Shown here: positions 3,988-60,516 of the stretch, piece by piece
Numbering within the stretch: the first letter of the stretch is position 1
Layout of the letters: each line of letters starts with the position of its first letter
Source: Heterodontus francisci
Taxonomy: Eukaryota
Assembly: GCF_036365525.1 (NCBI RefSeq)
Contig: NC_090399.1
Span: 20,160,529 to 20,224,528, forward strand
DNA: 64,000 nt
Reading direction: 5' to 3'
Translations under genes and position numbers: made by a program
The notes under the pieces: model-generated
Told to the model about the DNA's origin: nothing
The model's database searches: none
The model's input: the letters and a program-made list of their open reading frames with translations, nothing else

Positions 3988-4051
3988 ATGGGACGACAGG
4001 CACTTCCGATAGAAATGTTGTATCCTATTCTCGCAGTTATTGGCATTCCTG
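3988..4051 (+). CDS. GPR139/GPR142-like GPCR copy 1, coding exon 1 (MGRQALPIEMLYPILAVIGIP + 1 nt)
   Basis: aaaATGg Kozak context and donor G|gtaagt at 4052. Splicing to 6122 restores TM1 GIPANLL (human GPR139 has GLPANIL). Confidence 0.9.
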
Positions 4052-4470
4052 GTAAGTAATTCGAAACTATCCTGAAAAATTTAGTGCACCATTGCTAAAC
4101 TGCATTATTATTTTCCCTGTGTGTTTTTGTTATTGTCGTTGTTGTCTTTGTGGCGGTAATTTGCATTGGCCAGGTGGAAAGGACGATCAATAGAATGCTC
4201 GCCCATTGATGAGCTCGTCCGATTTTGGTCCCCTTTGATGTTTATGTTAATGGCTCAGTCCTGTTCTGTACCACTGGGCGGGCAGTCAATCCCTCCGCAT
4301 AACAAAGTGAAAATGGACCCTGTGTCATTTGGACTGAGCAGTGGCTCTGTCGGTCGCAATCTCTGCTTTGAGTCGGATAATCTTGCGTTTCCCTCCCATT
4401 TCAGTGAGTTGAGTTCATACTGTAAGCTGCCATTTCGGTGCAATATTGATGAAGTGATGCTATTTTGTCG

Positions 4471-5235
4471 AATCATAGAATGGTTACAGCACAGAAGGAA
4501 ACCATTCATCACGTCGTGTCCATGCCAGTTCTCAGGGAGTGCAGCACAGCTCGTCCCATTCCCTAGTCTTTCCCCCTGAGCCCAGCATTTCTCACTTCAG
4601 ATAAATATTCTATTCCCTTTTGAAAGCCACAATTCAATCTGCCTTCACCACACTCTCAGGCAGTGGATGCCAGATCCGAACCATTCACTGCATAAGATAA
4701 CTTTTCCTCCCCTTTGATTCTTTCACCAAACACTTTAAATCGGTGTCCTCTGATTCTCGACCCTCCCGCCAATGGCAACAGTTTCTCTCTATCTATTCTG
4801 TCCTGTCCCCCTCATGATTTTGAATACCTCTATCAAATCTCCTCTCAATTATCTCTTCTTTAAGCAGAATAGTCCCAACAGAACAGTAAATGAAGTCCCT
4901 CATCCCCAGAACCATTTTGTAAATATTTTCTGCACGCTCTTCAATGCTTTCACGTCCTTCCTAAAGTGTGGTGCCCAGAATTGTATAGAATACTCCAGCT
5001 GAGGCCGAGCCAGTGTTTTATAATGGCCCGACATTAACTTCCTTGCTTTTCTACCCTATGCTGCGATCTATAAAGCCCAGGATCCGTAATCCTTATTTAC
5101 CAATTTCTCAACCTGACCTGTCACCTTCAACGATTTGTGCTCATACACCCGTCCCCCACATCCCCGCCAGAACCCTCTGCTCCTGCACCTTCTTTAGAAT
5201 TGTTTATCCATTATTTTATATTTCCTTTCCTCATT
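4471..5235 (-). mobile_element. Intronic CR1 LINE 3' fragment (RT C-terminus plus tail); copies at ~24321, ~40945 and ~57598
   Basis: The minus strand encodes YKTLARPQLEYSIQFWAPHFRKDVKALKRVQK, homologous to YKTLVRPHLEYCVQFWSPH in the 863-aa CR1 ORF2. Confidence 0.85.
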
Positions 5236-6121
5236 CTTAAAATCATCTTTTTATGAGACGTTAAAAAGTAACTGATTTAATTTTAATAAAAATGCAGTAC
5301 TGGTTCAGCTGGATACAATCGTCATACTGCTAAATGTTGAATTAAATCTCAAACTATTCACGTATGGGGTAATTTTCACTTTGTATTAACATCAATGTGC
5401 AAGAAAGACGGAAGGGCTGTAAAATACGGGGCCCATTTGATATCAATTGCTTTTGGTTTTTTTTGCACGGCAATGAAAGTTAAAAATGTTCCCAAGGTTT
5501 CTATTTGCATTGAAAGGGAGATAAAACAGCATTAATCAGTAATAGGCAAGGAATGTTTATACGTTTTAACCTCATCGAACCGTAAAAAACTGATTGCATT
5601 GGATGAAACTCTGATTTTACCTGTCGCCCGATTTTCTTCTCTATTGAAGTCACTGTGAACAACATTGGACGGAACGAGCATCCCATAGAATCCGTCAGCA
5701 TCCGGCCCAGCAAGTTACTTCCAAATGGCTCCCATTAATGTTTTCATATTAGAATATCTTGAAGTTACCGCAGGGAAAAAATGTCTGGCAAGAAGATGGG
5801 GAAGTTTGCAGCAGCTGCTATGTGACAATTTATTCCAATCCAGGTTAACTATTAGCTATATTGTGCAATGGGTAATACTGAATTCACCGCCCCTTGTACA
5901 TTCAGCCTGTTACTCTCTTCCAATGACTTCCATGGAAAAAAAATGGATGGCCAATTAGATACCGCTATTTGACCCGGTCACACATGGCTAAAATTACCCC
6001 CGGTTCCTCCACCCCACAACTCCCAGCCTTATGATGCTTAACACCAGATTTCCAACTTGCTGTCAGTGTACATCTCTGTTGAATTTTTCTGTTAAATTTC
6101 CTGTTTTTGCATTTCTCCTAG

Positions 6122-7020
6122 CAAACCTGCTGTCATTTCTGGTTCTTTTCCAAAGGAAATGCGGTCTTTCCAAAGGAATCACTCATTATATGATGGCCAT
6201 GGCCGTGGGAGAACTCATGGTCCTTATCTTTAATGTTATTGTGAGCCAAATCATCAAGTATCATTTTCCAGATTCATTGCTGAACTACACTTCCACGTGT
6301 CGTTTTACTGTCTTCATGCAAGGGTTTAGCATTCAGCTCTCTATCTGGTTCACAATGTCGTTCACCTTTGACCGTTTTGTTGCAATTTGTTGCCAGAAAT
6401 TGAAATCAAGATATTGCACCGAAAGGACAGCCACCATGGTTGTAACGGCCATGTGTGTGCTCAACATTTTGATCAATATTCCCATGCCTTTCCGCTATGA
6501 GCCCGATTATATTCTCAACAATATACAGTGGGGCTGCCGCACCATCACAGGATATTTTACTTCACCCGCATGGAAGGTTCACCAATGGATTACCAATCTC
6601 TCAAGTACATTACTTCCAATTCCTTTGCTGCTGCTGTTGAACTCTCTCACCGTCAGGCACATTTTATTAGCCAGTAGAGCTCGCAAAGCCCTGAAGAGCA
6701 ACAACAATGGAAAAACCGGCAGTGATCCCGAGATGAAGAACAGAAGAACATCCATCATTCTACTCTTTGCTATCTCGGGCACTTTTATTGTGTTGTCGGC
6801 GCCTATTACCGTAATACACATCTGTGTCGGTGTCACACAGACACTCGATTTCCAAGGTTCAAACTCACTTTATTTGGCAATTAGAATCACATTTCTGTTG
6901 ATGTGCACCAGCTCCTGTACAAACACTTGTATTTATGCACTGACACAGAGGAGATTCAGAGCGGAGATCAAAAATATGGTGAAATATCCGTATTATCTCA
7001 TTGTTAAATTATTTAAATAA
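6122..7020 (+). CDS. GPR139/GPR142-like class A GPCR copy 1 (type A), coding exon 2; spliced gene 3988-7020, 320 aa
   Basis: Polypyrimidine tract plus ctag acceptor at 6120-6121. Seven hydrophobic helices once spliced, SIWFT..FTFDRF (GPR139 SIWIT..LTIDRY), LLLNSL in TM5, NTCIY..RRFR. 64+899 nt = 321 codons, no internal stop. Confidence 0.95.
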
Positions 7021-7026
7021 TTGTTG

Positions 7027-12115: not shown

Positions 12116-12117
12116 TC

Positions 12118-15612: not shown

Positions 15613-15624
15613 TTAGATGACAAA

Positions 15625-16260
15625 GCACACAGGCTGAAGTGTGTCACATACACACAGAGTAACACACAGGCTGCAGTGTGTCACATTCACACAGATTAGC
15701 ACACAGGCTGGAGGTATCACATACACACATAGTAACACACAGGCTGCATTGTGTCACAGCAAAGAGTAACACACAGGCTGGAGTGTGTCACATTCACACA
15801 GAGGAACACACAGGCTGGAATGAGTCACAAATGCAAAGTAACACCACAGACTGGAGCCAGTCTCTCTCTCTCACAGAGTGGCACAGAGGCTGGATTGTGT
15901 CACATACACAAAGTAACACACAGGCTGCAGTGTGTCACACAGAGTAACACGCAGGTTGGAATGAGTCACAAATGCAAAGTAACACACAGGCTGGAGTCAG
16001 TCTCACTCGCACACACAGAGTAACACACAGGCTGGAGTTTGTCACATACACAGAGTAACACACAGGCTGGAGTATGTCACATACACGCAGAGTAACACAA
16101 GTTGGAATGAGTCACAAATGCAAAGTAACACACAGGCTGGAGTCAGTCTCACACACACACACACACACACACACAGAAACACACTGGCTGGAGTTTGTCA
16201 CATACACAGAGTAACACACTGGCTGGAGTGTTTCACACACACACACAGAGTAACACACAT
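15625..16260. repeat. CA-rich minisatellite array; shorter copies at ~35563-35945 and ~52180-52600
   Basis: Tandem cacagagtaacacacaggctggagtgtgtca units; repeat number differs between units. Confidence 0.9.
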
Positions 16261-16957
16261 GCTAGATATTCTGGATATTCTTTCACAGGCACAAATAGTT
16301 TTTCTTGTAACTGCATAATAGGTCCTATGGGGTCTGGTAGGTCCATTGGCAGCTTGTCTACAAGGCCATTCATTGTATCAGTGTGTCACACACACAGGGA
16401 ATGTATCCATCTTGCGGATTTTCTGACGGTGGAATTGGATTTGGGCGGCACTTCCGCTCCCTCGCTTTTTGCCTGTTGCCACCCGATTACAAGTGGAAAT
16501 CAAAGTTTCAGCTGCGGGCATGGGAGATACATGCGATCATGTGGTGCGGAATACTTTTCATGGTGGAGCCTGCTGTCATTCAGGGAAGCATTATGCATGG
16601 CATTGGTATAAATAATCCTTCAGTGCAATCAGGGAGGCTCATCAACGAGGCCAGTCTTTTTCAGAGACTTCTAGGCTTTTCCCCTTAAATCTTACCCACC
16701 CTCACCCATCTTTACACCTGTCGCAAACAAAGGCTATGGACCCTGGCAACATTACGGCAATAGCACTGAGGACCTGTGCTCCAGAACTTGCCGCGCCCCC
16801 AGACAAGCAGATTTGAGATGGTGCGGGAGGGGCGGGGCGGCGGGGGCGGGCGGGGCGCGGAATAGTAACTGCAGTGAGACTGGGACACCAGCAGATGGAG
16901 ATGCTGAGCCATTGCTGATGGGAAGGTTTGGTGCTGCTGAGAGTTTGAAAGTTTCCA

Positions 16958-17273
16958 AACACAGAGTAACACGCTGGCTGGAGTGTGTCACAGGCACAGA
17001 GTAACACACTGGCTGGAGTGTGTCACATACACAGAGTAACACGCTGGCTGGAGTGTGTCATATCCACAGAGTAACACACTGGCTGGAGTGTGTCACATAC
17101 ACAGAGTAACACGCTGGCTGGAGTGTGTCACTGGCACAGAGTAACACACTGGTTGGAGTGTGTCACACGCACACACAGAATAACACACTGGCTGGAGTGT
17201 GTCACACACACACAGAATCACACACTGGCTGGAATGTGTACACACACAGAGTAACACACAGGCTGGAGTGAAT

Positions 17274-17304
<31 letters not shown>

Positions 17305-17430
17305 TGACACACTGGCTGGAGTATGTCACACACACAGAGTAATACACTGGCTGGAGTGTGTCACACACACACACACACACACAGAATAACACACTGGCTG
17401 GAGTGTGTAGACACACAGAGTAACACACAG
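16958..17430. repeat. CA-rich minisatellite array (actggctggag variant); copies at ~36515-36868 and ~53171-53524
   Basis: Tandem units; the last unit is the CR1 target site. Confidence 0.9.
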
Positions 17431-17507
17431 AATTAGAATTAGAACATTACAGCGCAGTCCAGGCCCTTTGGCCCTCGATGTTGCGCCGACCTGTGAAACC
17501 ATCTGAC

Positions 17508-20400
17508 CTACACTATTCCATTTTCATCCATATGTCTATCCAATGACCACTTAAATGCCCTTAAAGTTGGCGAGTCTACTACTGTTGCAGGCAGGGCGTT
17601 CCACGCCCCTGCTACTCTCTGAGTAAAAAAACTACCTCTGACATCTGTCCTATATCTATCACCCCTCAACTTAAAGCGATGTCCCCTCGTGTTTGCCATC
17701 ACCATCCGAGCAAAAAGACTCTCACTATCCACCCTATCTAACCCTCTGATTATCTTATATGTCTCTATTAAGTCACCTCTCCTCCTCCTTCTCTCCAATG
17801 AAAACAACCTCGAGTCCCTCAGCCTTTCCTCGGAAGACCTTACCTCCATACCAGGCAACATCCTAGTAAATCTCCTCTGCACCCTTTCCATAGCTTCCAC
17901 ATCCTTCCAATAATGCGGTGACCAGAACTGCACGCAATACTCCAGGTGCGGTCTCACCAGAGTTTTGTACAGCTGCAGCATGACATCGTGGCTCCGAAAC
18001 TCGATCCCCCTACTAATAAAAGCTAACACACCATATGCCTTCTTAACAGCCCTATTAACCTGGGTAGCAACCTTCAGGGATTTATGCACCTGGACACCAA
18101 GATCTCTCTGTTCATCTACACTACCAAGAATCTTCACATTAGCCCAGTACTCTGCATTCCTGTTACTCCTTCCAAAGTGAATCACCTCGCACTTTTCCGC
18201 ATTAAACTCCATTTGCCATCTCTCAGCCCAGCTCTGCAGCCTATTTATGTCCCTCTGTACCCTACAACATCCTTCGGCACTATCCACAACTCCACCGACC
18301 TTAGTGTCATCCACAAATTTACTAACCCACCCTTCTACACCCTCTTCCAGGTCATTTATAAAACTGACAAACAGCAGTGGCCCCAAAACAGATCCTTGCG
18401 GTACACCACTAGTAACTAAACTCCAGGATGAACATTTGCCATCACCCACCACCCTCTGTCTTCTTTCAGCTAGCCAATTTCTGATCCAAAGCTCTAAATC
18501 ACCTTCAACCCCATACTTCTGTATTTTCTGCAATAGCCTACCGTGGGGAACCTTATCAAACGCCTTACTGAAATCCATATACACCACATCCACTGCTTTA
18601 CCCTCATCCACCTGCTTGGTCACCTTCTCGAAAAACTCAATAAGGTTTGTGAGGCACGACCTACCCGTCACAAAACCGTGCTGACTATCGCTAATGAACT
18701 TATTCTTTTCAAGATGATTATACATCCTGTCTCTTGTAACCTTTTCCAACATTTTACCCACAACCGAAGTAAGGCTCACAGGTCTATAATTACCAGGGCT
18801 GTCTCTACTCCCCTTCTTGAACAAGGGGACAACATTTGCTATCCTCCAGTCTTCCGGCATGATTCCTGTCGACAATGACGACATAAAGATCAAGGACAAA
18901 GGCTCTGCAATCTCCTCCCTAGCTTCCCAGAGAATCCTAGGATAAATCCCATCTGGCCCAGGGGACTTATCTATTTTCAAACTTTCCAAAATTGATAACA
19001 CCTCCTCCTTGTGAACCTCAATCCCATCTAGCCTAGTAGCCTGAATCTCAGTATTCTCCTCGACAACATTTTCTTTCTCTACTGTAAATACTGACACAAA
19101 ATATTCATTTAACACTTCCCCTATCTCCTCTGATTCCACACACAACTTCCCACAACTATCCTTGATTGGCCCTAATCTAACTCTAGTCATTCTTTTATTC
19201 CTGATATACCGATAGAAAGCCTTAGGGTTTTCCCTGATCCTATCCGCCAATGACTTCTCGTGTCCTCTCCTTGCTCTTCTTAGCTCTCCCTTTAGATCCT
19301 TCCTGGCTAGCTTGTAACTCTCAAGCGCCCTAACTGAGCCTTCACGTCTCATCTGAACATAAGCCTTCTTCTTCCTCTTGACAAGCGCTTCAACTTCTTT
19401 AGTAAACCACGGCTCCCTCGCTCGACAACTTCCTCCCAGCCTCACAGGTACATACTTATCAAGGACACGCAGTAGCTGCTCTTTGAATAAGCTCCACATT
19501 TCGATTGTTCCCATCCCCTGCAGTTTCCTTCCCCATCCTACGCATCCTAAATCTTGCCTAATCGCATCATAATTTCCTTTCCCCCAGCTATAATTCTTGC
19601 CCTGCGGAATACACCTGTCCCTGCCCATCGCTAAGTTAAACCTAACCGAATTGTGATCACTATCACCAAAGTGCTCACCTACATCTAAATCTAACACCTG
19701 GCTGGGTTCATTACCCAGTACCAAATCCAATGTGGCATCGCCCCAGGTTGGCCTGTCTACATACTGTGTCAGAAAACGCTCCTGCACACACTGGACAAAA
19801 ACTGACCCATCTAAAGTACTCGAACTATAGTATTTCCAGTCGATATTTGGAAAGTTAAAGTCCCCCATAACAACTACCCTGTTACTCTCGCCCCTGTCGA
19901 GAATCATCTTCGCTATCCTTTCCTCTACATCTCTGGAAGTATTTGGAGGTCTAGAAAAGACTCCCAACAGGGTGACCTCACCTCTCCTGTTTCTAACCTC
20001 GGCCCATACTACCTCAGTAGACGAGTCCTCAAACGTCCTTTCTGTCGCTGTAATACTCTCCTTGATTAACAATGCCACACTCCCCTCCTCTTTTACCATC
20101 TTCTCCGTTCTTACTGAAACATCTAAATTCCGGAACCTGCAACATCCATTCCTGCCACTGCTTTACCCATGTCTCCGAAATGACCACTACATCGAGATCC
20201 CAGGTACCAACCCATGCTGCAAGCTCACCCACCTTATTACGGATGCTCCTGGCGTTGAAGTAGACACACTTTAAACCAGGTTGTTGCTTGCCAGTGCCCT
20301 CTTGCGTCCTTGTAACCTTATCCCTGACCTCACTACTCTCAACATCCTGTACACTGGAACTACAATTTAGGTTCCCATCCCCCTGCTGAATTAGTTTAAA
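17508..20400 (-). CDS. CR1 ORF2: APE endonuclease plus reverse transcriptase, with one frameshift near 20080
   Basis: CVYFNARS and ISETW (in the 20029-21549 frame), then MGDFN, SDHN, KSPGPDG, NYRPVSL, MDFSKAFD, GVPQGSVLGP and FVDD in the 863-aa ORF. The expected KRGGGVALL motif is broken by an indel. Confidence 0.9.
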
Positions 20401-23837: not shown

Positions 23838-23901
23838 ATGGGACGACAGGCACTTCCGATAGAAATGTTCTTTCCGATTCTCGCAGTTATTGGCATTCCT
23901 G
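23838..23901 (+). CDS. GPR139/GPR142-like GPCR copy 2, coding exon 1 (MGRQALPIEMFFPILAVIGIP + 1 nt)
   Basis: ATG in aaaATGg; donor gtaagt at 23902. Confidence 0.9.
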
Positions 23902-43494: not shown

Positions 43495-46400
43495 TTGTTG
43501 AATAAAGTAAGTGATATCAAACTTCAATTAATTGCCTGGCATTTTCTTTGCAACTTTGCACAATGTCTTTTAAAGTTCTAAGGGCAACACAACCCACAGT
43601 TTGGAAGAGTCCACTTGATTTATAAATTCCACTAAGAATTTGAATAAGTTGAGGAGGCAGAATCATCCCCTTCAGAATCTCTGGTTACGGTTGTTTATCC
43701 GGTTATTAATGTCCACGCACTTGGAATGCCGAATTGGAGGATGATGTGACATAGCAGAGCACCTTGACAGGTTCAAATAATAAAGATCTTTCAACACACT
43801 GACATCCGAATTTGGAGCAGGAGGAGGCCTGTCATTCCTTCGAGCCTGCTCCGCCATTTGATAAGATCATGGCAGATCTGGTTATGGCCTCAAATTTCCT
43901 GTCTACCTGATGTAACGCTGACTCCCTTATCAATCAGGATTCTATCTAAAACAGCACCTCAAGAGTCAGATCACCATGAAATACAATGGGATATTGTGTT
44001 TGATGGCAGGTGTTATGGAATATAAATATAGAGATTTAGTGGTGAATCTCTCCCAGACTTTTGTGAGACCAAACCCGCAGTATTTTGTGCTCTTTTGGAC
44101 TCAACACTGTTGGCCAATTTGGACGTAATAGTGAGGACACAGCGTAGTAAACTCACTAGCATGATGTCGGACATGAATAAATCCAAATATGAAAAATGAG
44201 TTCGTTCTCAATCAGAAGAGAAGAGATTTCAGGCTGAATTAATAGAGATAGTTGCAGTAATGAAAGCCTGGAGCAGAATAGATAGATGCAACGATTGATG
44301 GGTCTATCAGCAGTGAACATAGATCTTGAGAGTAAATGAAAGAGATTTAGGACAGAGAACAGAAGAAACTTTGTGATACCTAGAATTGTGAAGCTGTGAC
44401 TTGGATTTTTGGAGTTATTGATTGAAGCAGAGACTGTGACAACTTTAACGGGTTTGATATGATGTTTAAAGACCAATGAATAAAGTAATATTGGAGCAGT
44501 GCGACCAGATATGATTAAAACTATTGCTTATGTAGATGACAAATACAGACATGGGTTGATCTGCCCCAACGACCTGCTTTCGTGTTGCAATTTCTATGAA
44601 ATTCATTTTTTCGTGTGGTAATTGATTTGTTTTCTTCTGCTGGCAAGACTTCATGTTTGGCCAATTCCTTGCAGCCCTGAGGATGTGATGGCCAGCCTTC
44701 AATTTTACCTGCTGCTCTCCTTCTGATGGTGCAGCAGCGATGATGCCAGGAAGGGAATCCCAGGATACAGATACAGCGACCATGAACAAATTGTGACATA
44801 TGTCTAAGCAAGAATGGTATGTGACTTACAAATGATGATGTTCCAATGACATTTTGTCCCTGTGTTTCTCGGTGGGAGAGGTTACAGGTGAGGAAGGTCC
44901 TGTCGAATTAAACTTGATGGCTTGCTGCAGTGCATCCGATAAACTGTATTTTCAGGAACCATTGTGTGTCAGCTGCAGAGGGAAGGACACTGAGCTCAGG
45001 GACATGGGCACTGATGAAGGGAACTGCTCTGTCCCGTATGAGATCGAGCTTCTTGAGTTGTATAGTTCCTGCACCCATCCTGTCGATTGGTCTATATTCC
45101 CTCACACACCTGACATGTGGCCTTTACTTGATGTTGAGGATTTGGAACGGGATCGGGGTGAAGGGAGAGGTGCGAGCGGATGTGTGCCACTCTGAGACGC
45201 TGTGGTACTGATAGTTAGCGGGTAAAACAATATCAAATTGATGCAGTACGTATTGCTCTTCTGAGATTTCAACCGAAGAAATGGGTTGCAGCAAAGTAGA
45301 GGAAGTTTCTTCAGTCTCCATTTAAGCTGTGCTCCAGCTGACCTCAGCGTGTCTCCACGCAAAACTGTGAAAATTCTTGGCAATGCTTACAAGCTCAATC
45401 AGGCTGATCATGTAAGACATTCTATTCTCTCACTAATAGTGAATCTTTTACAAAGGCAATGAATAAAACGAATCTGGTGGCTACCTTAACACGGTGCAGG
45501 GTTGGCACCCCAACGTTCTCCCGACGTCGGGTTCCCGACCCCCAGAAGGAAAATCCTTTTCACCAAAAGGAGGCACGGTTGACTTGGCAACAAGTCCACT
45601 GTCACACTGAGGCCCTGTCACTAACTGAAAAACGACAGGTGGGAAACCTTCCAGCGCTCTCGACAAGTCTTTTCTTTTCCCCTTGCAGAACCTGCGTTTC
45701 CAGTTTTTTTTTTTAACTTTCTGTCGTTTGGAAATCCCACAGACGATGTTCGAATCTTCATTCTCAATATGGATGGGATAACCAGCGGGATTCCTGCAGA
45801 AATAATTTCCCTATCCCTCTCCACGTTATGGCAGGAGATGGGGAGAACCCACCCACAACCACATCCTCTCCCACCCATTGGAAATTCCATCCCTCAAAAA
45901 TATTTCTTCTGGCAGAATATTTCGGAGCTGTGTCATATTGTTCTTGTATTTGACAGAGAGTTGGACCTTGTGATTGAGAAACTGCAGATATGTTTCAGGC
46001 CGTTGACCCAATATAAATGGCCTCCTTCATTTTGCAGCACATCTCATGACCTTGGGTTTCTACTTGCTTTTGGCTTGACCAAATGTTCTCGTTTCGCCCT
46101 CGTTCCTGCTCTCGAGCAGTGGCTTTTACTGAATTTTCTTTTCTTCACATAACTCAGATATGACATGATCACCCATTTTGCAGCATTATCCAAATTTAAA
46201 ATTGCACCGCCACCACCGCACAACTCCCCTCATCCCTCGCTCAGTTCCAATCCTAGCAGAAACCATTCTGTCCTTTTTCAGCGTGGTAGCATTCTTGCCT
46301 CCTCGTCAGAACGTCACCAGAGACTTAAATGCACAATCTAGGCTGCCGCTCCAGTGAGGGAGTGCTGCACTGTCGTAGGTGCTATCTTGTGGATGAGACA

Positions 46401-48574
46401 TTAAACCAAGGCCCTGCCTGCCCTCTCAGGTGGACGGAAAAGACGCTGTGTCACTATTTTAAGGACTTCACCCCTTCCTCGGCTCTTCGGCTGCTGAAAC
46501 CCTCATCCAGGACTTTGTTACCTCTAGACTTGACTATTCCAATGTTCTTATGACCAGTCTTCCACATTCTTCCCTCATAAATTTGAGGGCATCCGAAACC
46601 TTGCTCCCCACGTCTGAACTCACACCAAGTCCTGTTCACCAACACCCCTGTGTTTGCTGACTCATTTTGGCTATCAGTTTAGTAATAAATTGATTTTAAA
46701 ATTCCCATCCTTGTTTTCAAATGCCACCATGGTCTCACCCCTCCCTATCTCTGTAATCTCCTACAGCCCCACAACCCTCTGGGATATCTACACTGCCCGA
46801 CCTGAACCCGATGGGACCTGACATGTGTCTGGTCACTCTTCTGGGCCCGTTTTTCGGGATTATGTCGGGTCTGAGTCAGACACACACAGTATTAATTGGA
46901 CTTGAAAGGTTGTTTAAAAGGATTAAGATTGGAGCCATGAAGTCAGTGATTGTTTGGTCACAAGGTAAACAGAAACCCATGGAGTTGTGCCCATTCAGGT
47001 TGTGCCACGCTGTACCAGTATCCGCATTGCTTAAAATAAAGACCTCAATTGCCCGAAGGCTCAGAAAATATCATTATACATTAACTAGACTCCTGCTTTA
47101 CAGGTCGAAATACTTGCTGTAAGTTTATCCAGTGAGCAGCTGAGATGCCGAGACCAGGAAGGTCCTGAGTGATTAATTATTATTACAGTACTGTACTGTA
47201 TGTGTGGTAGAATGGAGTCCTGGCAGTGATCATTTTATATTTTTTTATATAAATACTGTATATTTTATAATAATTAATCTCTCAGGACCTTCCTGGTCTC
47301 TGCATCTCAGCTGCTCACTGGATAAACTTGCAGCAAGTATTTCAACTGAAAAAGTGAAAAACAGATTCGGAGTTGGAAGGTAGGTAAAGTGAACATTCCG
47401 TTGGTCGGGTTGGGTCGGACTCGGGTCGGGTTGGGCATGGGAAAAAATGGAAGGACTCAGACCAGGTTGGGCTCGGGTATGATGTGGTTCTGTTGTTTTT
47501 TTTTTCAGACCCGAGCAGGCCTTTCATCTACGCTTCTCTGATTCTGGCCTCGTGAGCTCCAACATTGGTGGCTGTGACTTCAGGTGCCTAGCCCCAAGCT
47601 CTGGAATTCCCTCACTCAACCTCTCCACTTCTCTCTCCTCCTTAAAGAAATTCATTAAAAACCTACCACTCTGACCAAGCTTTAGGTCATCAGCTATAAT
47701 ATCATCTTATGTCACTTGGTCAAAGTTTGCTTATAATGCTCTTGTGAAGTGCCTTGTGATGTTATATTACATTAAAGGTGCAATATAAATGCAAGTTGTT
47801 TTTGTTGTTGTTGAAGAAGACTTGGGGTGTTCTCCCCAACTTCACTAAAACAGTTGATCTAGTCATTTATCTCATTGCTGTTTGTGGGAGTTTGCTGCTG
47901 TGTGTAAACTGGATGCTGCATTGTCTACATTTCAAGAGTGACTGCATTTCAAAAAGGAGTCGAATTGGCTGTGATGCACTTTTGGATGTCCTGGGGTGGT
48001 GAAAGCTGATTTATAAATGGAAATCTTTCAGGTCTTGCTTTACTGAAGACCAGCCTGGTCTGAAATGCTCAGGAAGATGACTGTGCACACAAACGAACAA
48101 TTCAAAGGTCAGGTGCATCAGAAGGGAAAAACTCAGGTAGCACAGACACTGAGAGGTATATGAAGCAGGAAAGCAAATTTGAATCAAAACAAGGGAAAGT
48201 GTATTAGCACACTTCCAAATAGAAATAATCAGAATAAGTATAGACAATCAAAACTGTTAGGAATCAATTCACAGAAGTCATCCAAATACTTGGTTCAATT
48301 ACAGGCATCACACATGCACACTCACACACACTCACACATAGAGTAACACACACAGGTTGGAGTGTGTCACAAAGAGTAACACACGGGGCGGAGTGAGTCT
48401 CTCACACACACAGATTAACACAAAGGCTGGACTGTGTCAAACACACACAGAGTAACACAAAGGCTGGAGTGTGTCACACAACATGACACGCAGGTTGGAA
48501 TTTTCAAACACACTTAGCAACATACAGGAAGGGTCAGGCACACAAACAGAGTAACACATAGGCTGGGGTCAGTC

Positions 48575-51500
48575 TTTAAACATTAATCTTTATTGCATAA
48601 TAACTATATACACTCCACACTAGCCTGTGTGTCTCCTTCAAAAGCCTTGCTGTAACTGTTCTTGAGTCTCTCCCACATGATTTCTTAACTCATCCTGGTG
48701 GGCAGTAATCTTTACGTTCTCTCAGGATTAACCCTTTGATACCCTTATACTACATTTTCCCCACGTTTTTAGCCTAAGATATATTTAGACACATTCATTT
48801 TTTCATTTACACGCTATCCTATCTCCTCCCAAGTCTCTGACTTCATAGATTCAACCTATCAGGAGGCTTCACAACTCTCCCTAATCTTGTTGGTCGTCAG
48901 ATGTGAAAGATTGATAATCTTTCTCTGATCCCTTGTTTCTTGACTTGGACGGTCTTCGTTGAGTTTTGTAGCATTTGGCACTTTTTGATTTTTCGGTTCA
49001 TCATCTGAGTCGTCTAACTGTGTAACTAACGTCTTTGATGTAAAGGAATAAGATTCCTTCTATTTCTCCATATAGGATCTTCTTGAGTCCGTAGTAGAGA
49101 AGATCGCTGTTGATTCTCATCTTTCTGGAGAATTACCCTGTCTCTCTTTTGGTCTCGTACCCATACTTTTTGCCCTTCTGACAACTTTGGTAGGTTTCAG
49201 GTACGGAACCTTCTGTTATGATAATGGGTCTGCTTGTTTCAATATGACTTTTCTATGTCCAGTATTTTCTGATAATCCTTGCCTTGCAATCCTGGAAGTA
49301 ACTTCTTGCATAGAATTGAAAATTGCTTTTGAAGTTTTCATTAAGAGTTGTGATGGCGCTAATCTGCACAATAATGGAATAGTTCTGTATGTCAGTCGTG
49401 CTAAATGGAAATCTCTTTTTTTTCAATCAACATAATTTTAATGGTTCTGACTGCTCGCTCTGCTTCTCCATTTGATTGTGGATACTTAGGAGAGCTTGTT
49501 AGGTGAACAAATCCACATTATTCTGCAAAGTGCGTGAAGTAATCGTTTGCAAATTGCAGTCCATTATCAGATAATATGTGATCAGGTATACCAGGTGTTG
49601 TGAAACTTCTTGTAAAACTCTGATGACTGCTTCAGTTGTTGTTGTGTTGTCCATCTTAACTTCGATCCATCCTGAGAAGTAATCAACTATAATTAGCTAG
49701 GCTCTTCCTTCAAAGAAGAACAAATCCACGGTCTAGTTGAGAATTGGGTCGAAATTACAGGTTCTCTTTGATCTTGTCTTCCCCAGCTTCTTCCCCAGTT
49801 CTCTGTCCGTGTAGCACTCCTGTGATACTTACTGCATTTCTGTTTATCTCTCTGCTAATCTTTGAGCAGCACGGCGGGCTGTGAAATATTGCATTGTGTG
49901 GGCTCTGTAACGAAATCTGGACTCTCTGCAAAACTCAGGTCAGGGTATGGGGCTCTCCCTCTGTCCTCGCTCCTGGATTATTCTCGTTTATCTACTTCAA
50001 CTTTCTCAATAATATGAAGATCAATAAAAGTTCTTCTACTTAAGTCTGCGAACTCCTGATTTCTTAGGACATACAGTGTTTCTAATATTTACTTTCCATT
50101 ATATTGAAGCGTTGCTTGTAACTTCCCCTTTACTTCAAGTACAAGACCTCCTGGGCCATGCAACTGAGTTTCTATTGCTTGCTCCGGTGTCAAGTTTGAA
50201 ATGTGTCTGCTGACCAAAATGCTCGTTTCAGATCATTGATCTCACCCAGAAAATATTTCGATTGGTCTGCTGCAGGAGCTTCTGTAACTTCATTTATCTC
50301 TCTATTCTTAACTACTTTTCCTTTAGAGGTTGATGTGGTCACGATTTTATTTCAGCATAATCTTACTGAGATGCCCTATTTTTCTGTAATAAAGGCATTC
50401 TGCTCTATTGGCGGGACACTGTCCATGCCTGTGGGACGTTTTTGCAACACAATGTTTAAGGACATCTTTTGCTCTGCCCCCTAGTGTACCTGTTTTCCTG
50501 GTACCTCTTGTTCAGCCGTCTGGTGAAGGAACGGAACTGTTACAGGAGGATTCCTGTACCGGGGTCTTTCCTCACCTCGTATGATTGGTCTGTTATTGCT
50601 GCACTAATTGAAGTCGGGAACAAAAGCTTTCACAACGTGTTCAAATTTTGTTGATTTTATCAATACGCTGCTATTATATCATCAGCTACAGCACCAATTA
50701 AATACAATTATTTATTAATTTGCTCTGCTTCAGACCTGCTGTCCAATTTCAATACAATTCTATATCTGAGAAATATTTTCCTCTATAGTACCCAGTTTTG
50801 AGTCTGATTGGATCCCTTGTGACTTTTGAAACTCTCTGGAAGTCCCAATTTTTGATCCATTTTTAAAAATTTACAGACTTTTTAGCGTGTTTGCCTTTAA
50901 GAAACTCTTTTTCTCACACTAGCTTGCTTTGATGGAGTGTATCAGGTGCTTGAGAGAGTTCCTGATGTTTTAAATAGGCTTTCTAGGGGTTTACCCTTTG
51001 CTTCAGCAGCTCACTTATATCTTTATTTATTCTGAGATACAGCACTGAAACAGGCCCTTTGGCCCACCGAGTCTGTTCCAATCAACAACCACCCATTGAT
51101 ACTAACTCTACACTGCCCCCAGGTTTTCTACCACATCCCCACCATTCTCCTACCACCTACCTACACTCGGGGCAATTTACAATGGCCAATTTACCTATCA
51201 ACCTGCAAGTCTTTTGGAGGTGGGAGGAAATCGGAACACCCGGCGGAAACCCACGCAGACACAGGGAGAACTTGTAAACTCTGCACAGGCAGTACTCAGA
51301 ATCGAACCCGGGTCGCTGGAGCTGTGAGGCTGCAGTGCTAACCACGGCGCCACTGTGCCACTGACAGCTGACACAGCTGTCTATTGGAATTAACAGAGCT
51401 GTTCCGTGGACAGTTTCAGGGTTTTCCCCTTTTCTTTTTAAGACCACGAGATACTTCAAGCTTGACAGCTTTAATTATTTTTTCAGGCTTGGCTGCATTA

Positions 51501-52166
51501 ATGGAGATTCTGCTGTATTCGGGGTTTCCCTGCCCTTTTTTTCTCTTCAGTATCGGACTTTTCCCGTACATTTTTTTCAGTTCGTGCACTTTTCAGGGTT
51601 CTCTCCACTCTCCACCCTTGCATTCAGCCTGAGTGAGGGATGGGTTGACCCCATTGCTTTTTTCTTTCAATCTCACACTGAGACTTTGGAAAAAATAATT
51701 TTTTAAAACTCTTCAAAGGCTTTTTTTTAAACCAGGATTTCTTAGGCGTCAGCACAATAATTCAGCCGATTGCTTGTTTGCAGCCATGCTTCCATTCTAT
51801 GGAGCTTCTCTCAGCCTTCAAAGATCTGTTGTTTCTTTTTATCTTTTCAGATACTTATTTTAAATTCTCTCTTCTGGCTGAAGGATGCTAGTTACTTCAA
51901 ACTTTTTCTTCTGAGTGTAGAATCCCTCCACTGTTCACCATATTATATGTTTGGCTCTTCATGCTGCCACCGTCAGAGAGGTTCTTAGACTGTAGTGTTT
52001 AAACATTAATCTTTATTGCATTGTAAGGATATACACTTCACACCAGCCTGTGTGTCTCCTTCAATAACCACGCTGTAACTGTTCCCAAACCTCTCCCACA
52101 TAATCCCTTACATCATCATGATGGGCCGCAATCTTTACGTTCTCTCAAGATTAACCCTTTGATACA
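48575..52166 (-). mobile_element. Gypsy LTR element remnant, unit 3 copy
   Basis: Nearly identical to 31958-35549. Confidence 0.85.
51022..51359 (-). mobile_element. HE1-type V-SINE, unit 3 copy
   Basis: Paralogous to 14467-14804. Confidence 0.9.
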
Positions 52167-52537
52167 TTTAGATGACAAAGCACACAGGCTGAAGTGTGTC
52201 ACATACACACAGAGTAACACACAGGCTGGAATGAGTCACAAATGCAAAGTAACACCACAGGCTGGAGTCAGTCTCTCTCTCACTCACAGAGTAACACACA
52301 GGCTGGGGTTTGTCACATACACAGAGTAACACACAGGCTGGAGTTTGTCACATACACAGAGTAACACACAGGCTGGAGTATGTCACATAAACAGAGTAAC
52401 ACACAGGCTGGGGTATGTCACATACACAGAGGAACACACAGGCTGGAATGAGTCACAAATGCAAAGTAACACACAGGCTGGAGTCAGTCTCACTCACATA
52501 CACACACAGAGAAACACACAGGCTGGAGTCAGTCTCC

Positions 52538-52573
<36 letters not shown>

Positions 52574-55500
52574 CACACATGCTAGAGTGGGTCACACACA
52601 CAGGGAATGTATCCATCTTGTGGATTTTCTGACGGTAGAATTGGATTTGGGCGGCACTTCCGCTCCCTCGTTTTTTGCCTGTTGCCACCCGATTACAAGT
52701 GGAAATCAAAGTTTCAGCAGCGGGCATGGGAGATACATGCGATCATGTGGTGTGGAATACTTTTCATGGTGGAGCCTGCTGTCATTCAGGGAAGCATTAT
52801 GCATGGCATTGTTATAAATAATCCTTCAGTGCAATCAGGGAGGCTCATCAACGAGGCCAGTCTTTTTCAGAGACTTCTGGGCTTTTCCCCTTAAATCTTA
52901 CCCACCCTCACCCATCTTTACACCTGTCGCAAACAAAGGCTATGGACCCTGGCAACATTACGGCAAGAGCACTGAGGACCTGTGCTCCAGAACTTGCCGC
53001 GCCCCCAGACAAGCAGATTTGTGATGGTGCGGGGGTGCGTGGAGGGGTGGGGTGGGGGTGGGTGGGGGGGGGAATAGTAACCGCAGTGAGACAGGGACAC
53101 CAGCAGATGGAGATGCTGAGCCATTGCTGATGGGAAGGTTTGGTGTTACTGAGAGTTTGACAGTTTCCAAACACAGAGTAACACGCTGGCTGGAGTGTGT
53201 CACAGGCACAGAGTAACACACTGGTTGGAGTGTGTCACACGCACACACAGAATAACACACTGGCTGAAGTGTGTCACACACACACAGAGTAACACACTGG
53301 TTGGAGTGTGTCACACGCACACACAGAATAACACACTGGCTGAAGTGTGTCACACACACACAGAATAACACACTGGCTGGAGTGTGTACACACACAGAGT
53401 AACTTACTGGCTGGAGTGTGTCACACACAAACACACAGAATAACACACTGGCTGGAGTGCGTCACACACACAGAATAACACACTGGCTGGAGTGTGTACA
53501 CACACAGAGTAACACACAGGCTGGTGTACGTCAAGAATATCAATGTGCTACCAAGAAACAACTGAAGACACTGGATGCTGCAAAGGCAATGGGCCGTGAC
53601 AATGTTCCGGCAATAGTACTGAAGACCAGTACCTGATATGAAATGTGACCCGTGGTAAGATGGAATTTCTTCTGGAAATCGGTTTTGCAGCATGCATTTC
53701 CTGGAATATTTCCAGAATGTGTTGTGACAAGGTCCCAGGCTCATAAGGTTAAACAAGATGAGATGGATTCAGATGTTTTCGAGGACAATTCCGATGTTTG
53801 GTTGGCTGAAATATTTTTCAGGGATTTGGATGAGGACATTGGTGTTAAAGGCTCCAAGGTTAACAATGGGGAATTGTTTAGCAGATCTCCCGTGATTTTG
53901 GGACACAACAGGCAGATCCTGATTTTAGGAGCTTGTCTCAGGCGACCTGTTTTGAGCCACAGACTGAAAAGTTTTATTAGTGTTATTACGTCAAGAAAGA
54001 TGAGGAAGTGGAGACCTCTCCGCTGATGAGGATTGGGCTGTAATCCATCAAATGGTTGTCCCTCCTTGCTATCATAGTGTAATTTAGAGAATTGCCAATG
54101 AAATCCCAGTCACAGGTCATTTGTGTTTTCCAAAAACTCAGGTTAGGGTAATGACATATTGTTACTAGCAAAGCTGCATCAGGATGTGGTTCACTATTGT
54201 AAGACATGCCACACATGTCAAATGGTTGGGATCCACAGCCTATATCTTTACCTTTGCCACCTATCTCAATAAAAGCAGATTTCCTTTCATTATCAAAAGT
54301 CTTTTCTTTCCAATTTCTCTGAAAGTTTCCAAATTGAGGCCTGTGACAACTGCTTTGTGAATCAATTCATAATCATGTGCTACTACTGCGGCTTCCTTTA
54401 TTTTACAAACTTCATTTTTTAAAATTTGTTTGTGGGATGTGGGCGTTGCTGGCTAGGCCAACATTTATTGCCCATCCCGAAATGCCTTTGAACTGAGTGG
54501 CTTGCGAGGCCATTTCAAAATGCTTTTTTGTGTCTGGAGTCAGATGGAGGTCAGACCACGTAAGGATGGCAGATTTCCTTCCGAAAAGGACATTAGTTAA
54601 ACAGATGGGTTTTTATAACAATCGACAATGGTTTCATGGTCACAATTAGACTAGCTTTTTAATTCCAGAATTGTGAAGAAAATTCAAACTTCACCTTCTC
54701 CTATGGTGGGATTCGATCCCATCTCACCAGATTTTTAGTTTGTGCTCTGGAATACTAGTTTAATAACATTAACACTCTGCCGCGAACTCCCCCATGTTGT
54801 TTCATTTGGAAACTTATTCCTGAACGAATACTGTGTTTCAAATCTTCCATCAGAATTACTTCCCTCAGGCTCTCAAAGTCTTGTGCAATCTTTATTGACC
54901 TATACCACCTATCAAATTCAATCGTGTCTTTCAAAAGGAAATAGGATAAATACTTGAAGGGAAATGAAATGGGAGTAGAGGGGGAAAGGACCGGATGTGG
55001 GACTAGATAAATTGCTCTTGCAGAGAGTAGGCACGGGCATGATGGGCCGAATCACCTCCTTCACGAGGAGTGAGAGCGCCCATTAAGGCCCTATCACTCA
55101 CTAATCGAGGAAGAGGTCTTGCAAATAAAGATGAGTGTTGAGGCTGGAGGACACATCCTGCAGGTTTCTTCTCTAATTTACAGTGTGCCCGTTCTGAACG
55201 AAATCTCACACTGACACACAATGCATAGGAAAATTCAGCTGCTTTCAGCTGACGCTCATCAGTCTTTGCTTGACCTCAACCCTAAATACTAATTCTTGAC
55301 CTTCTGTTCTATTTCAGGGCAATGGAATGTGCCCAGAACCTGAGGTGTGGGAAATGGGTTGCACTTGTGATCATGCGGAAGCACCCACGGTTACTTCCGC
55401 AAGCATCAGCTCAGAGACTTGCATTGCCAGTACTTTAGTTGGTATGCAAGATGGTTATGGACTGTTCGACTCAAGGAGCAGCAGAGAATGGAAAATGGGT

Positions 55501-57114: not shown

Positions 57115-57178
57115 ATGGGACGACAGGCACTTCCAATAGAAATGTTCTTTCCGATTCTCGCAGTTATTGGCATTCCTG
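57115..57178 (+). CDS. GPR139/GPR142-like GPCR copy 4, coding exon 1 (type B)
   Basis: ATG at 57115; donor gtaagt at 57179; TATAAA at 57055-57060. Confidence 0.9.
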
Positions 57179-59183
57179 GTAAGTAATTCCAAACTACCCT
57201 GAAAGATTTAGTGCACCATTGCTAAACTGCATTATTATTTTCCCTGTGTGTTTTTGTTATTGTTGTTGTTGCCTTTGTGACGGTAATTTGCATTAGCCAG
57301 GTGGTAAAGTCGAGCATTCGATCGCTCGCCCATTGATGAGTTCGTCCGATTTTCGTTCCCTTTGATGTTTATGTTAATGGCTCAGTCCTGTTCTATATCA
57401 CTGGGCAGGCAGTCAATCCCTCCGCATTACAAAGTGAAAATGGACCCTGTGTCATTTGTACTGAGCTGTGGCTCTGTCGGTCGAAATCTCTGCTTTGAGT
57501 CGGATAATCTTGCGTTTCCCTCCCATTTCAGTGAGTTGAGTTCAGACTGTAAGCTGCCATTTCGGTGCAATATTGATGAAGTGATGCGATATTGTCGAAT
57601 TATAGAATTGTTACAGCACAGAAGGAAACCATTCATCACGTCGTGTCCATGCCAGTTCTCAGGGAGTGCAGCACAGCTCATCCCATTCCCCTGTCTTTCC
57701 CCCCGAGCCCAGCATTTTTCTCTTCAGATAAATATTCAATTCCCTTTTGAAAGCCACAATTCAATCTGCCTTCACCACACTCTCAGGCAGTGGATTCCAG
57801 ATCCGAACCATTCACTGCGGAAGATAACTTTTCCTCCCCTTTGATTCTTTCACCAAACGCCTTAAATCGGAGTCCTCTGAAATTCGACCCTCCCGCCAAT
57901 GGGAACAGTTTCTCTCTATCTATTCTATCCAGTCCCCTCATGATTTTGAATACCTCTCAATATTGCACCTCTCAAATCTCCTCTCAATTATCTCTTCTTT
58001 GAGCAGAATAGTCCCAACAGAGCAGTAAATGAAGTCCCTCATCCCCAGACCATTTTGTAAATATTTTCTGCACTCTCTTCAATGCTTTCACGTCCTTCCT
58101 AAAGTGTGGTGCCCAGAATTGTATAGAATACTCCAGCTGAGGCCGAGCCAGTGTTTTATAATGGCCCGACATTAACTTCCTTGCTTTTCTACTCTCTGCC
58201 ACGATCTATAAAGCCCAGGATCCGTATTCCTTATTAACCAATTTCTCAACCTGCCCTGTCACCTTCAACGATTTGTGCTCATACACCCGTCCCCCACATC
58301 CCCGCCAGAACCTTCTGCTCCTGAACCTTCTTTAGAATTGTTTATCCATTATTTTATATTGCCTTTCCTCATTCTTAAAATCATCTTTTTATGAGACGTT
58401 AAAAAATAACTGATTTAATTTTAATAAAAATGCAGTACTGGTTCAGCTGGATACAATCGTCATACTGCTAAATGTTGAATTAAATCTCGAACTATTCACG
58501 TATGGGGTAATTTTCACTTTGTATTAACATCAATGCGCAAGAAAAATGGAAGGGCTGTAAAACACGGGGCCCATTTGATATCAATTGCTTTTGTTTTGCT
58601 TTGCACGGCAATGAAAGTTAAAAATGTTCCCAATGTTTCTATTTGCATAGAAAGGGAGATAAAACAGCATTAATCAGTAATAGGCAAGGAATGTTTATAT
58701 GTTTTAACTGAATCGAACCGTAAAAAACTGATGGCAGTGGATACAACTCTGATTTTACCTGTCGCCCGATTCTCTTCTCTATTGAAGTCACTGTGAACAA
58801 CATTGGGCGGAACGAGCATCCCATAGAATCCGTCAGCATCCGGCCCAGCAAGTTACTTCCAAATGGCTCCCATTAATGGTTTCATATTAGAATATCATGA
58901 AGTTACCGCAGGGAAAAAATGTCTGGCAAGAAGATGGGGAAGTTTGCAGCAGCTGCTACGTGACAATTTATTCCAATCCAGGTTAACTATTAGCTATATT
59001 GTGCAATGGGTAATATTGAATTCTCCGCCCCTTGTTCATTCAGCCTGTTACTCTCTTCCAATGACTTCCATGGAAAAAAAATGGATGGCCAATTAGATAC
59101 CGCTATTTGACCCGGTCACACATGGTTAAAATTACCCCCGGTTCCTCCACCCCACAACTCTCAGCCTTATGATGCTGAACACC

Positions 59184-59539
59184 GGCACTGTGGGCGGCAC
59201 AGTGGCGCAGTGGTTAGCACCGCAGCCTCATAGCTCCAGGGACCCGGGTTCGATTTCGGGTACTGCCTGTGTGGAGTTTGCAAGTTCTCCCTGTGTCTGC
59301 GTGGGTTTTCTCCGGGTGCTCCGGTTTCCTCCCACAAGCCAAAAGACTTGCAGGTTGATAGGTAAATTGGACATTACAAATTGTCACTAGTATAGGTAGG
59401 TGGTAGGGAAATATAGGGACAGGTGGGGATGTTTGGTAGGAATATGGGATTAGTGTAGGATTAGTATAAATGGGTGGTTGATGTTCGGCACAGACTCGGT
59501 GGGCCGAAGGGCCTGTTTCAGTGCTGTATCTCTAATCAA
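59184..59539 (+). mobile_element. Young full-length HE1-type V-SINE, private to the copy 4 intron
   Basis: A and B boxes, V domain and CR1-like tail; flanked by acc/acc. The empty site aacaccagatttcc is present in copies 1-3, and the intron is 360 nt longer than in copy 2. Confidence 0.95.
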
Positions 59540-59617
59540 ACCAGATTTCCAACTTGCTGTCGGTGTACATCTCTGTTCAATGTTTTGTTAAATTTCCTGT
59601 TTTTGCATTTCTCCCAG

Positions 59618-60516
59618 CGAACCTGCTGTCAGTTTTGGTTCTTTTCCAAAGGAACTGCGGTCTTTCCAAAGGAATCACTCGTTATATGATGGCCATGGCC
59701 GTGGGAGACCTCATGGTCCTTATCTTTAATGTTATTGTGAGCCAAATCATCAAGTATCATTTTCCAGATTCATTGCTGAACTACACTTCCGCGTGTCGTT
59801 TTACTGTCTTCATGCAAGGGTTTAGCATTCAGCTCTCTATCTGGTTCACACTGTCGTTCACCTTTGACCGTTTTGTCGCAATTTGTTGCCAGAAATTGAA
59901 ATCAAGATATTGCACCGAAAGGACAGCCACCACGGTTATAACGACCATGTGTGTGCTCAACATTTTGATCAATATTCCCATGCCTTTCCGCTATGAACCC
60001 GATTATACTCTCAACAATATACAGTGGGGCTGCCGCACCGTCACAGGATATTTTACTTCACCCGCATGGAAGATTCACCAATGGATTACCATCCTCTCAA
60101 ATGCATTACTTCCAATTCCTTTGCTGCTGCTGTTGAACTCTCTCACCGTCAGGCACATTTTATTAGCCAGTAGAGCTCGCAAAGCCCTGAAGAGCAACAA
60201 CAATGGAAAAACCGGCAGTGATCCCGAGATGAAGAACAGAAGAACATCCATCATTCTACTCTTTGCTATCTCGGGCACTTTTATTGTGTTGTCGGCCCCT
60301 ATTACCGTAATACACATTTGTGTCGGTGTCACACAGACACTCGATTTCCAAGGTTCAAACTCACTTTATTTGGCAATTAGAATCACATTTCTGTTGATGT
60401 GCACCAGCTCCTGTACAAACACTTGTATTTATGCACTGACACAGAGGAGATTCAGAGCGGAGATCAAAAATATGGTGAAATATCCGTATTATCTCATTGT
60501 TAAATTATTTAAATAA
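59618..60516 (+). CDS. GPR139/GPR142-like GPCR copy 4 (B/A mosaic), coding exon 2; spliced gene 57115-60516, 320 aa
   Basis: Acceptor ctcccag with AG at 59616-59617; 899-nt open frame. Confidence 0.95.

Follow-up and report, generated by a model that had tools for sequence, protein, structure and literature searches.

A birth-and-death family of about 10,000 G protein-coupled receptor loci, related to GPR139 and GPR142, in the genome of the shark Heterodontus francisci

We analyzed a 64,000-nucleotide stretch of the Heterodontus francisci genome (contig NC_090399.1, positions 20,160,529 to 20,224,528, forward strand), hereafter the window, in which four intact receptor genes lie in tandem. 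These genes belong to a birth-and-death G protein-coupled receptor (GPCR) repertoire that is of new ancestry and unprecedented size, with about 10,000 loci in this assembly. As far as function can be read from sequence, the family is best interpreted as a putative ligand-diversified chemosensory repertoire in water-facing cells, a reading to which we assign a rough probability of 0.55.

The four genes are on the + strand, and each encodes 320 amino acids (aa) once spliced, with all frames intact. In every case, a 64-nt exon 1 ends at a GT donor in phase 1, and exon 2, reached through an AG acceptor after an intron of 2.06-2.44 kb, completes the frame. The first-pass annotation had described four intact, co-oriented 320-aa genes with seven transmembrane (TM) segments; splicing confirmed this description, and the Pfam domain 7tm_1 was found in the two copies scanned (E 1.5e-18 and 4.6e-19). 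The coordinates within the window are as follows.

3988..4051, + strand: copy 1 exon 1 (21 codons plus 1 nt; short N-terminus and start of TM1)
6122..7020, + strand: copy 1 exon 2 (remaining TM1 to the stop; type A protein; D2.50 replaced by E)
23838..23901, + strand: copy 2 exon 1
25981..26879, + strand: copy 2 exon 2 (type B protein)
40469..40532, + strand: copy 3 exon 1
42596..43494, + strand: copy 3 exon 2 (type A protein, differing from copy 1 by 1 aa; model described below)
57115..57178, + strand: copy 4 exon 1
59618..60516, + strand: copy 4 exon 2 (type B protein, differing from copy 2 by 10 aa)
36860..53516, + strand: complete repeat unit (16.66 kb) containing copy 3, from self-alignment

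The copies alternate in the order A-B-A-B: copies 1 and 3 differ by 1 aa, copies 2 and 4 by 10 aa, and the two types by 16-23 aa. In a self-alignment of the window, the repeat units are 95.6-98.0% identical across 3.5-20 kb. The unit of about 16.6 kb proposed earlier holds for two of the ATG-to-ATG distances (16.63 and 16.65 kb); the first, between copies 1 and 2, is 19.85 kb, because a CR1-type long interspersed element (LINE) sits there. Besides this LINE after copy 1, the window copies carry another private insertion, resembling a short interspersed element (SINE), in the intron of copy 4. Given these insertions and the differences of 1-23 aa, the four are genuine copies and not assembly duplicates. 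The array was predicted to run off both ends of the window, and it does: the local array includes 16 copies with 92-100% identity at C29:19.93-20.28 Mb of the 6.0-Gb genome, 13 of them co-oriented within 237 kb, and exon 2 is free of stops in all 16. From the divergence of the flanks of the 13 collinear copies (the non-collinear L008, L009 and L013 were dropped), 3.3 nonsense and 3.9 frameshift changes, i.e., about 7 disabling changes, are expected in exon 2, and none was observed. The earlier remark that receptor frames were kept while retroelement frames decayed is correct as to the receptors; the comparison itself is unfair, because the degraded LINE remnants in the introns, which are 35-57% identical to the young LINE, occur in all units and thus decayed before the duplications.

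A protein search of the genome returned 12,396 first-look candidates, of which 138 were scored, all with E < 1e-72. Exact matches to degenerate patterns numbered 2,580 for a strict TM3 pattern, 1,027 for TM7, 5,918 for a loose TM3 pattern and 10,576 for the end of exon 1 with its donor, and the same patterns reversed, which served as controls, gave 0, 0, 0 and 1 sites, respectively. Since the loose TM3 pattern recovers 32 of 52 genes found by other routes (95% interval 0.47-0.75), its 5,918 sites scale to about 9,600 exon-2 loci (7,900-12,600), in agreement with the exon-1 count. The family thus comprises about 10,000 loci in this assembly, and the motif counts exceed a mere handful of copies by three orders of magnitude. 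The sites correspond to whole genes, as 39 of 45 TM3 sites in C5:200-208.5 Mb are preceded, on the same strand and within 30 kb, by an exon-1 site (6.9 on average at random, maximum 15).

Exon 2 was open in 28/40, 17/20 and 13/20 loci (TM3-picked) and 15/20 loci (TM7-picked), i.e., in 73 of 100, with 27 broken. These were motif-bearing loci drawn, for each pattern, from the 100 places listed first (contigs C3-C23), with openness judged by eye; a stricter scripted rule, applied to one TM3-picked set of 20, gave 12 open loci, compared to 13 by eye. Our lower bound for the number of intact genes is about 4,300, and our central estimate is about 7,000. A search for exon 1 within 4.2 kb succeeded at just 18 of 60 loci, and one within 10 kb at 11 of 20; the remaining loci likely have longer introns or a divergent exon.

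One motif variant alone has 75 sites across 2.7-78.5 Mb of contig C21, and on this 90-Mb contig family genes occur along nearly the whole length (0-78.5 Mb). On the largest contigs, clusters are found near the ends (C5:200-208.5 Mb; C4:204-207 Mb; C7:137-138.8 Mb). Near-identical copies recur at a spacing of 370-420 kb (C48:17.98/18.39; C1848:1.01/1.38/1.80; C918:0.31/0.73 Mb), which suggests giant segmental repeat units. At four loci on C1 and C7 (L132, L133, L142 and L143), exon 1 is longer and encodes a repeated N-terminal unit of 14 aa with an N-glycosylation sequon; this subfamily is possibly the same as the 435-493-aa proteins of Heptranchias.

It should be noted that uncollapsed haplotypes or false duplications could inflate such counts. 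The C918 pair is 99.98% identical over 10 kb, about 39% of one sample (52/135) lies on small scaffolds, and some of the small-scaffold copies may be assembly duplicates, with many redundant. As an explanation of the family as a whole, however, an assembly artefact is very improbable: clustering the 104 intact genes of the sample at 80% identity gives 39 clusters, the window copies carry private insertions, two haplotypes could not account for near-identical copies that occur in groups of five or six, contigs of 56-288 Mb carry hundreds of the listed sites, and the family is annotated in many other species. Dropping all small-scaffold copies leaves about 6,000 loci.

For the analysis of selection, the 104 intact exon-2 proteins were represented by the 39 clusters. 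Columns with at least 90% conservation account for 58 of 173 positions on the intracellular side and 6 of 125 on the pocket side, and positions 3.32, 3.33, 5.43, 6.51 and 7.39 are hypervariable. In six recent arrays, the ratio of nonsynonymous to synonymous change (dN/dS) was 0.65 on the pocket side and 0.36 on the intracellular side (Fisher p 3e-8), both below 1, and the contrast was seen in four of the six. These ratios are simple change counts on genes chosen as intact, in which relaxed and positive selection are not separable; positive selection was rejected as a claim, there being no region with dN/dS above 1 in the six arrays. The combination of a variable pocket and a conserved signalling face supports a sequence signature of a ligand-diversified repertoire.

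The same data bear on genomic drift, in which the copy number of a modest functional core has grown through segmental duplication without selection in a 6-Gb genome, leaving most copies redundant or silent. Such drift would be consistent with the near-identical copies at a spacing of about 370-420 kb (97-99.98% over 10 kb), with the 27 broken exons among the 100 sampled, and with the divergence of exon 2, which is nearly that of the flanks (0.077 versus 0.085 changes per site in the 13 collinear copies of the window array). It is, however, poorly compatible with zero disabling changes where about 7 are expected, with the dN/dS of 0.36 on the signalling face of recent paralogues, with the retention of a promoter core (described below) across old subfamilies, and with the occurrence of the same subfamilies in sharks and rays. 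We consider drift unlikely as the whole explanation; it may account for family size while function remains.

The receptors are class A (rhodopsin-like) GPCRs. Among the 39 clusters, the class A motifs D2.50 (37), D3.49 (39), R3.50 (39), P5.50 (36), W6.48 (37), N7.49 (37) and Y7.53 (39) are retained, whereas P6.50 is found in just 2 and position 7.50 is T. C3.25 is present in 38 clusters, with a cysteine in the second extracellular loop (ECL2) of the consensus. The AlphaFold model of copy 3 exon 2 (47-row alignment) reached a predicted local distance difference test (pLDDT) score of 86.8 and has seven helices, helix 8 and short ECL2 strands. Its best-scoring Foldseek matches, with a TM-score of about 0.7, are GPCRs for peptides and chemokines; the model resembles opioid, CCK1 and neurotensin receptors, and GPR139 appears at rank 21. 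With the two window proteins, models of olfactory receptors (ORs), TAAR, V1R, V2R and T2R gave no match, and only 7tm_1 was reported at E up to 0.001. The Srw and Srx models of Pfam match some family members and GPR139 itself. The srw receptors of nematodes have a chemosensory role.

The window subfamily is atypical at residues 247-249, with S6.48 in place of the W found in 37 of the 39 clusters, and with P6.50 kept where most have lost it. In copy 1, E at position 2.50 (window 6209-6211, residue 52) is the sole difference from copy 3; D2.50, the sodium-site residue, is kept in 37 of the 39 clusters.

The family derives, as far as intron position and quick trees indicate, from a GPR139/142-related lineage of fish orphan genes. 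The label "GPR139/142-like" given to the window genes was apt insofar as the genes are related; GPR139 and GPR142 themselves are separate single genes. A TM3 pattern of the GPR139 type has one match in the genome, the true GPR139 (L031; E 1e-163 to human GPR139), which shares 83-96% identity with orthologues ranging from those of rays to those of mammals and sturgeon. In contrast, the window protein matches human GPR139, its best hit among sequences of solved structures, weakly (E 5e-7). A genome search with true GPR139 returned GPR139, GPR142, a third gene (L094) and then 135 weaker matches at 26-32% identity, of which all 17 inspected are members of the receptor family; identity between the family and true GPR139 is 26-33%. 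Orthology of the window genes to GPR139 was rejected, given this identity and the existence of a true single-copy orthologue.

GPR139, GPR142, L094 and three family genes all have a phase-1 intron immediately before N1.50, and its acceptor falls at one and the same codon position. In a quick tree, 58 family rows fall on one side of a branch with a support of 100 in the Shimodaira-Hasegawa-like approximate likelihood-ratio test (SH-aLRT). Outside the family, the closest sequence is a salamander gene (99), followed by a coelacanth/teleost group (93) and then by the L094 group (94). These are quick trees with a midpoint root, no bootstrap and no other vertebrate peptide receptors as outgroup. The window subfamily forms one branch (SH-aLRT 99), with members of 53-97% identity in 16 named species of sharks and rays; it is thus older than the shark-ray split. 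Among the best 120 relatives of the window protein, the 118 named proteins are all from sharks or rays, and a protein of the chimaera Callorhinchus falls inside the family, which therefore spans sharks, rays and a chimaera. The earlier proposal of a lineage-expanded, birth-and-death family is supported by these relatives, the genome search and the trees. The window copies, types A and B alike, appear nearly redundant with one another and seem to represent a single specificity common to sharks and rays.

L094 (C3:166.5 Mb) is a conserved, apparently single-copy GPR139-like orphan that is mislabelled as GPR139; its orthologues occur in sharks, rays, chimaera, coelacanth, lungfish, sturgeon and teleosts, with no tetrapod in the best 120 matches. 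The salamander gene (P0470, P0528 and P0531; Pleurodeles/Ambystoma) is the closest relative outside chondrichthyans and offers a tractable proxy for the ancestral function.

Amino-acid sensing had been suggested on the strength of the GPR139 relationship, and this suggestion is not supported. The Trp/Phe pocket of GPR139 is formed by E3.32, F3.33, H5.43, W6.48, R6.51 and N7.38 (PMC7318219). At these six places the window protein has Q, G, T, S, I and F, so that none is kept. Across the 39 clusters, F3.33 is found in 11, H5.43 in 16, W6.48 in 37 and R6.51 in 4; at 3.32, the seven commonest residues do not include E. An amino-acid ligand by homology was rejected on these losses and on the 26-33% identity.

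Several known systems can be compared. GPR139 and GPR142 share with the family the phase-1 intron before N1.50; they differ in being single-copy, compared to thousands of copies, and GPR139 lacks C3.25 in the alignment. GPR139-like fish paralogues have been named GPR210A/B, together with a third set, in a study that includes no shark (PMC6504862). Such fish orphan paralogues and the salamander gene group with the family but are apparently low-copy in our searches. GPR139 has been reported as related to the receptors of MIP, proctolin and FMRFamide (PMC12208981), and an expansion of about 450 FMRFamide/MIP-receptor-like genes in Lymnaea (PMC11589774) comes from the same receptor stock; the shark expansion is independent and about twenty times larger. 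The OR, TAAR, V1R/ORA, V2R/OlfC and T2R families resemble the present one in clustered birth-and-death evolution with many pseudogenes, a variable pocket, conserved intracellular motifs and a shared promoter grammar. They are, however, of other ancestry, whereas this family sits with GPR139 relatives and has two coding exons. The largest known vertebrate olfactory repertoire has 2,514 genes (PMC10869828), a number exceeded by our estimate of intact genes (about 4,300-7,000).

Twenty genes from different subfamilies were aligned upstream of exon 1 and compared to shuffled and far-upstream controls. A Fox-like element, TGTTTGTT, is present in 14 of 20 promoters (shuffled mean 0.45; far control 0), TG(T/C)AAC in 13 (0.8; 1) and TATAAA in 13 (1.7; 0), all at fixed spacing; a palindrome-like element about 20 nt upstream of TATAAA and a TAAT element are also kept in position. 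The factor names attached to these elements, such as Fox-like, are presumptive. The core promoter of copy 1 is located as follows.

3850..3935, + strand: copy 1 core promoter, with the same order of elements as in other subfamilies (Fox-like site 3855-3862; TAAT; a degenerate TG(T/C)AAC-like site; palindrome-like element 3905-3916; degenerate TATA, GTACAAAT, 3927-3934)

A core shared across old subfamilies points to one cell class. Reading the palindrome as an X-box (RFX) was rejected for lack of enrichment (13/20 versus 12.2 shuffled), and octamer, ETS, CCAAT and CRE motifs were not enriched in 26 promoters. Mouse OR promoters have a grammar of homeodomain and EBF sites (Lhx2/Ebf; PMC5608512).

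Large, clustered birth-and-death families with a variable pocket and a conserved signalling face are characteristic of chemosensory repertoires, and the sequences have both of these features. The family spreads through tandem and segmental duplication with frequent loss; a single G-protein-facing surface and a single core promoter are retained throughout, and the ligand pocket varies. We propose that each receptor recognizes a different extracellular molecule and that all of them act through one signalling pathway in a single cell class, most probably chemosensory cells facing the water, each with one or few members. The ligands are probably peptides or other larger water-soluble cues, because the modelled fold has the disulfide and the ECL2 hairpin of peptide-receptor type. 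Within the chemosensory reading, olfactory neurons are a plausible, if tentative, site of the family, and other sensory epithelia a rather doubtful one. The olfactory version gains from the paucity of known receptors: cartilaginous fishes have on average 43.8 OR genes (20-62) despite their numerous olfactory neurons (PMC10869828), and the counts for the catshark are 2 ORs, 6 OR-like genes and 32 canonical V2Rs (PMC11979771). In its fullest form, for which the chances appear somewhat less than even, sharks and rays would smell or sense water-borne peptides mainly via this GPR139-like-derived family, with several thousand intact genes here, the largest receptor gene family known in a vertebrate, one promoter code and a choice of one or few genes per cell.

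Three runs (presumed RNA, from one sample, contigs only) were compared to window positions 3700-7700 at 85% likeness. They matched repeats of the intron and, with low coverage, short stretches of exon 2; exon 1 was uncovered, and there was no joint between exons 1 and 2 among 15 of 138 joints. This pattern counts neither for nor against expression. Two Logan proteins, P0057 and P0094, begin within exon 2 and carry no splice evidence.

Several observations weigh against the chemosensory reading. First, 52 of the 135 GPR139-query matches are on high-numbered small scaffolds, and the 11 small-scaffold copies examined are 97.3-99.98% alike over 10 kb, so that distinct specificities are far fewer than loci; moreover, the intactness sample came from motif-bearing loci on the first-listed contigs, C3-C23. 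Second, the window array has no pocket excess (dN/dS 0.34 extracellular versus 0.43 intracellular), nor has the C17 array (0.59 versus 0.62), and relaxed constraint fits the pocket value of 0.65 as well as diversifying selection does. The argument for a repertoire thus rests on the whole family and not on the four window copies. Third, the TATA of the window copies is degenerate. EBF-type sites with up to 2 mismatches are found in 16 of 20 promoters (5.4 shuffled), yet in 10 of 20 far-upstream controls, the strict EBF consensus in 0 of 26, and one with a single mismatch in 3 of 20; homeodomain sites are found in 9 of 20, compared to 4.9 shuffled. Against these controls, the resemblance to the mouse OR grammar is weak. 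Finally, in the catshark study, V2Rs are described as the main olfactory family, and no GPCR is among the 50 most abundant and specific genes of a brain-plus-olfactory library (PMC11979771); the latter absence is weak evidence, because sparsely expressed receptors would rank low.

A variable pocket, a fixed signalling face and rapid turnover would also fit pathogen sensing, in which leukocytes or sentinel cells of skin, gill or gut detect microbial or parasite peptides in the manner of MRGPRs and FPRs, and the peptide-receptor-like fold of the model is compatible with this. Mammalian MRGPR- and FPR-type families are likewise clustered and fast-evolving. However, ETS/PU.1-type sites are found in 7 of 26 promoters, compared to 5.1 shuffled, and NF-kB-type and IRF-type sites in 2 of 26 each, and dN/dS of the pocket half remains below 1; we regard immune or barrier surveillance as unlikely.

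The Fox-like and palindromic elements could presumably be read as a ciliated, endocrine or spermatid programme as well, which would suit an internal or reproductive role, i.e., the sensing of endogenous peptides by germ cells, enteroendocrine cells or brain, like GPR139 (brain) and GPR142. The closest characterized relatives are indeed internal metabolite or peptide receptors (PMC7318219, PMC12208981), and the snail expansion of about 450 FMRFamide-receptor-like genes has been linked to reproduction by its authors (PMC11589774). Endogenous ligands, however, do not need thousands of variable pockets, and single-copy relatives suited to such roles are present and conserved, which makes this role quite improbable.

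The preferred chemosensory reading, if it holds for olfaction, would add a new vertebrate chemoreceptor family, several times the size of the OR sets of elephant or echidna, and would explain huge olfactory organs alongside about 40 OR genes. If the role were immune or reproductive, this would still be the largest GPCR expansion that we found reported for a vertebrate. In either case, a family of this size poses the problem of gene choice at a new scale. Whatever the function, about 10,000 loci under the label "probable GPR139" overturn the relative paucity of GPCRs in cartilaginous fishes stated in the whale shark paper (PMC8455134). A literature search, whose coverage excluded subscription papers, found no description of this receptor family, and "GPR139" is absent from the main text of the catshark sensory paper.

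The first-pass annotation expected such genes to be auto-annotated as "probable GPR139", and this is borne out among annotated relatives. P0001, the closest public model (310 aa; labelled Heterodontus francisci), relies on a different acceptor and is missing part of TM1. Public models of the window array (310 aa) take the wrong acceptor and lose part of TM1. Names of other relatives are misleading, e.g., cephalotocin, melatonin, opioid or C5a receptor-like.

The remaining features of the window are mobile elements and repeats.

17511..21567, - strand: young CR1-type LINE between copies 1 and 2, outside the receptor gene (open reading frame (ORF) 1 with an esterase domain; ORF2 with endonuclease and reverse transcriptase (RT))
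3..617, - strand: 5' part of a second copy of the young LINE at the window start (96% aa identity)
4692..5139, - strand: old, decayed LINE RT fragment in the copy 1 intron (counterparts at 24448-24999, 41181-41613 and 57725-58286)
15626..17433, no strand: CA-rich satellite of 35-37 bp (counterparts at 35564-36868 and 52181-53524)
59183..59540, + strand: 357-bp insert in the copy 4 intron only, labelled SINE-like from its appearance

The frames of the young LINE, present in some units, are long and open (884 and 512 codons). Elsewhere it is reduced to ORF1 stubs (36844-37092 and 53500-53748), which adjoin the 35-37-bp satellite, as if the LINE had been lost through recombination in the satellite. 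In a check for mobile cargo, the window unit outside the gene was found to share just short patches with other loci; the patches 37611-38111 and 50861-51361 are common to 12-23 and 44-45 other retrieved loci, respectively, and are probably interspersed repeats. Frames of at least 300 aa in 31 family flanks of 10 kb, inspected by eye, are receptor or LINE-like, except two. A two-copy 26-bp G-rich repeat (window 55708-55762) lies upstream of copy 4 only. At C7:137.76 Mb, a family gene (L043) is interrupted in TM5 by an in-frame LINE RT fragment.

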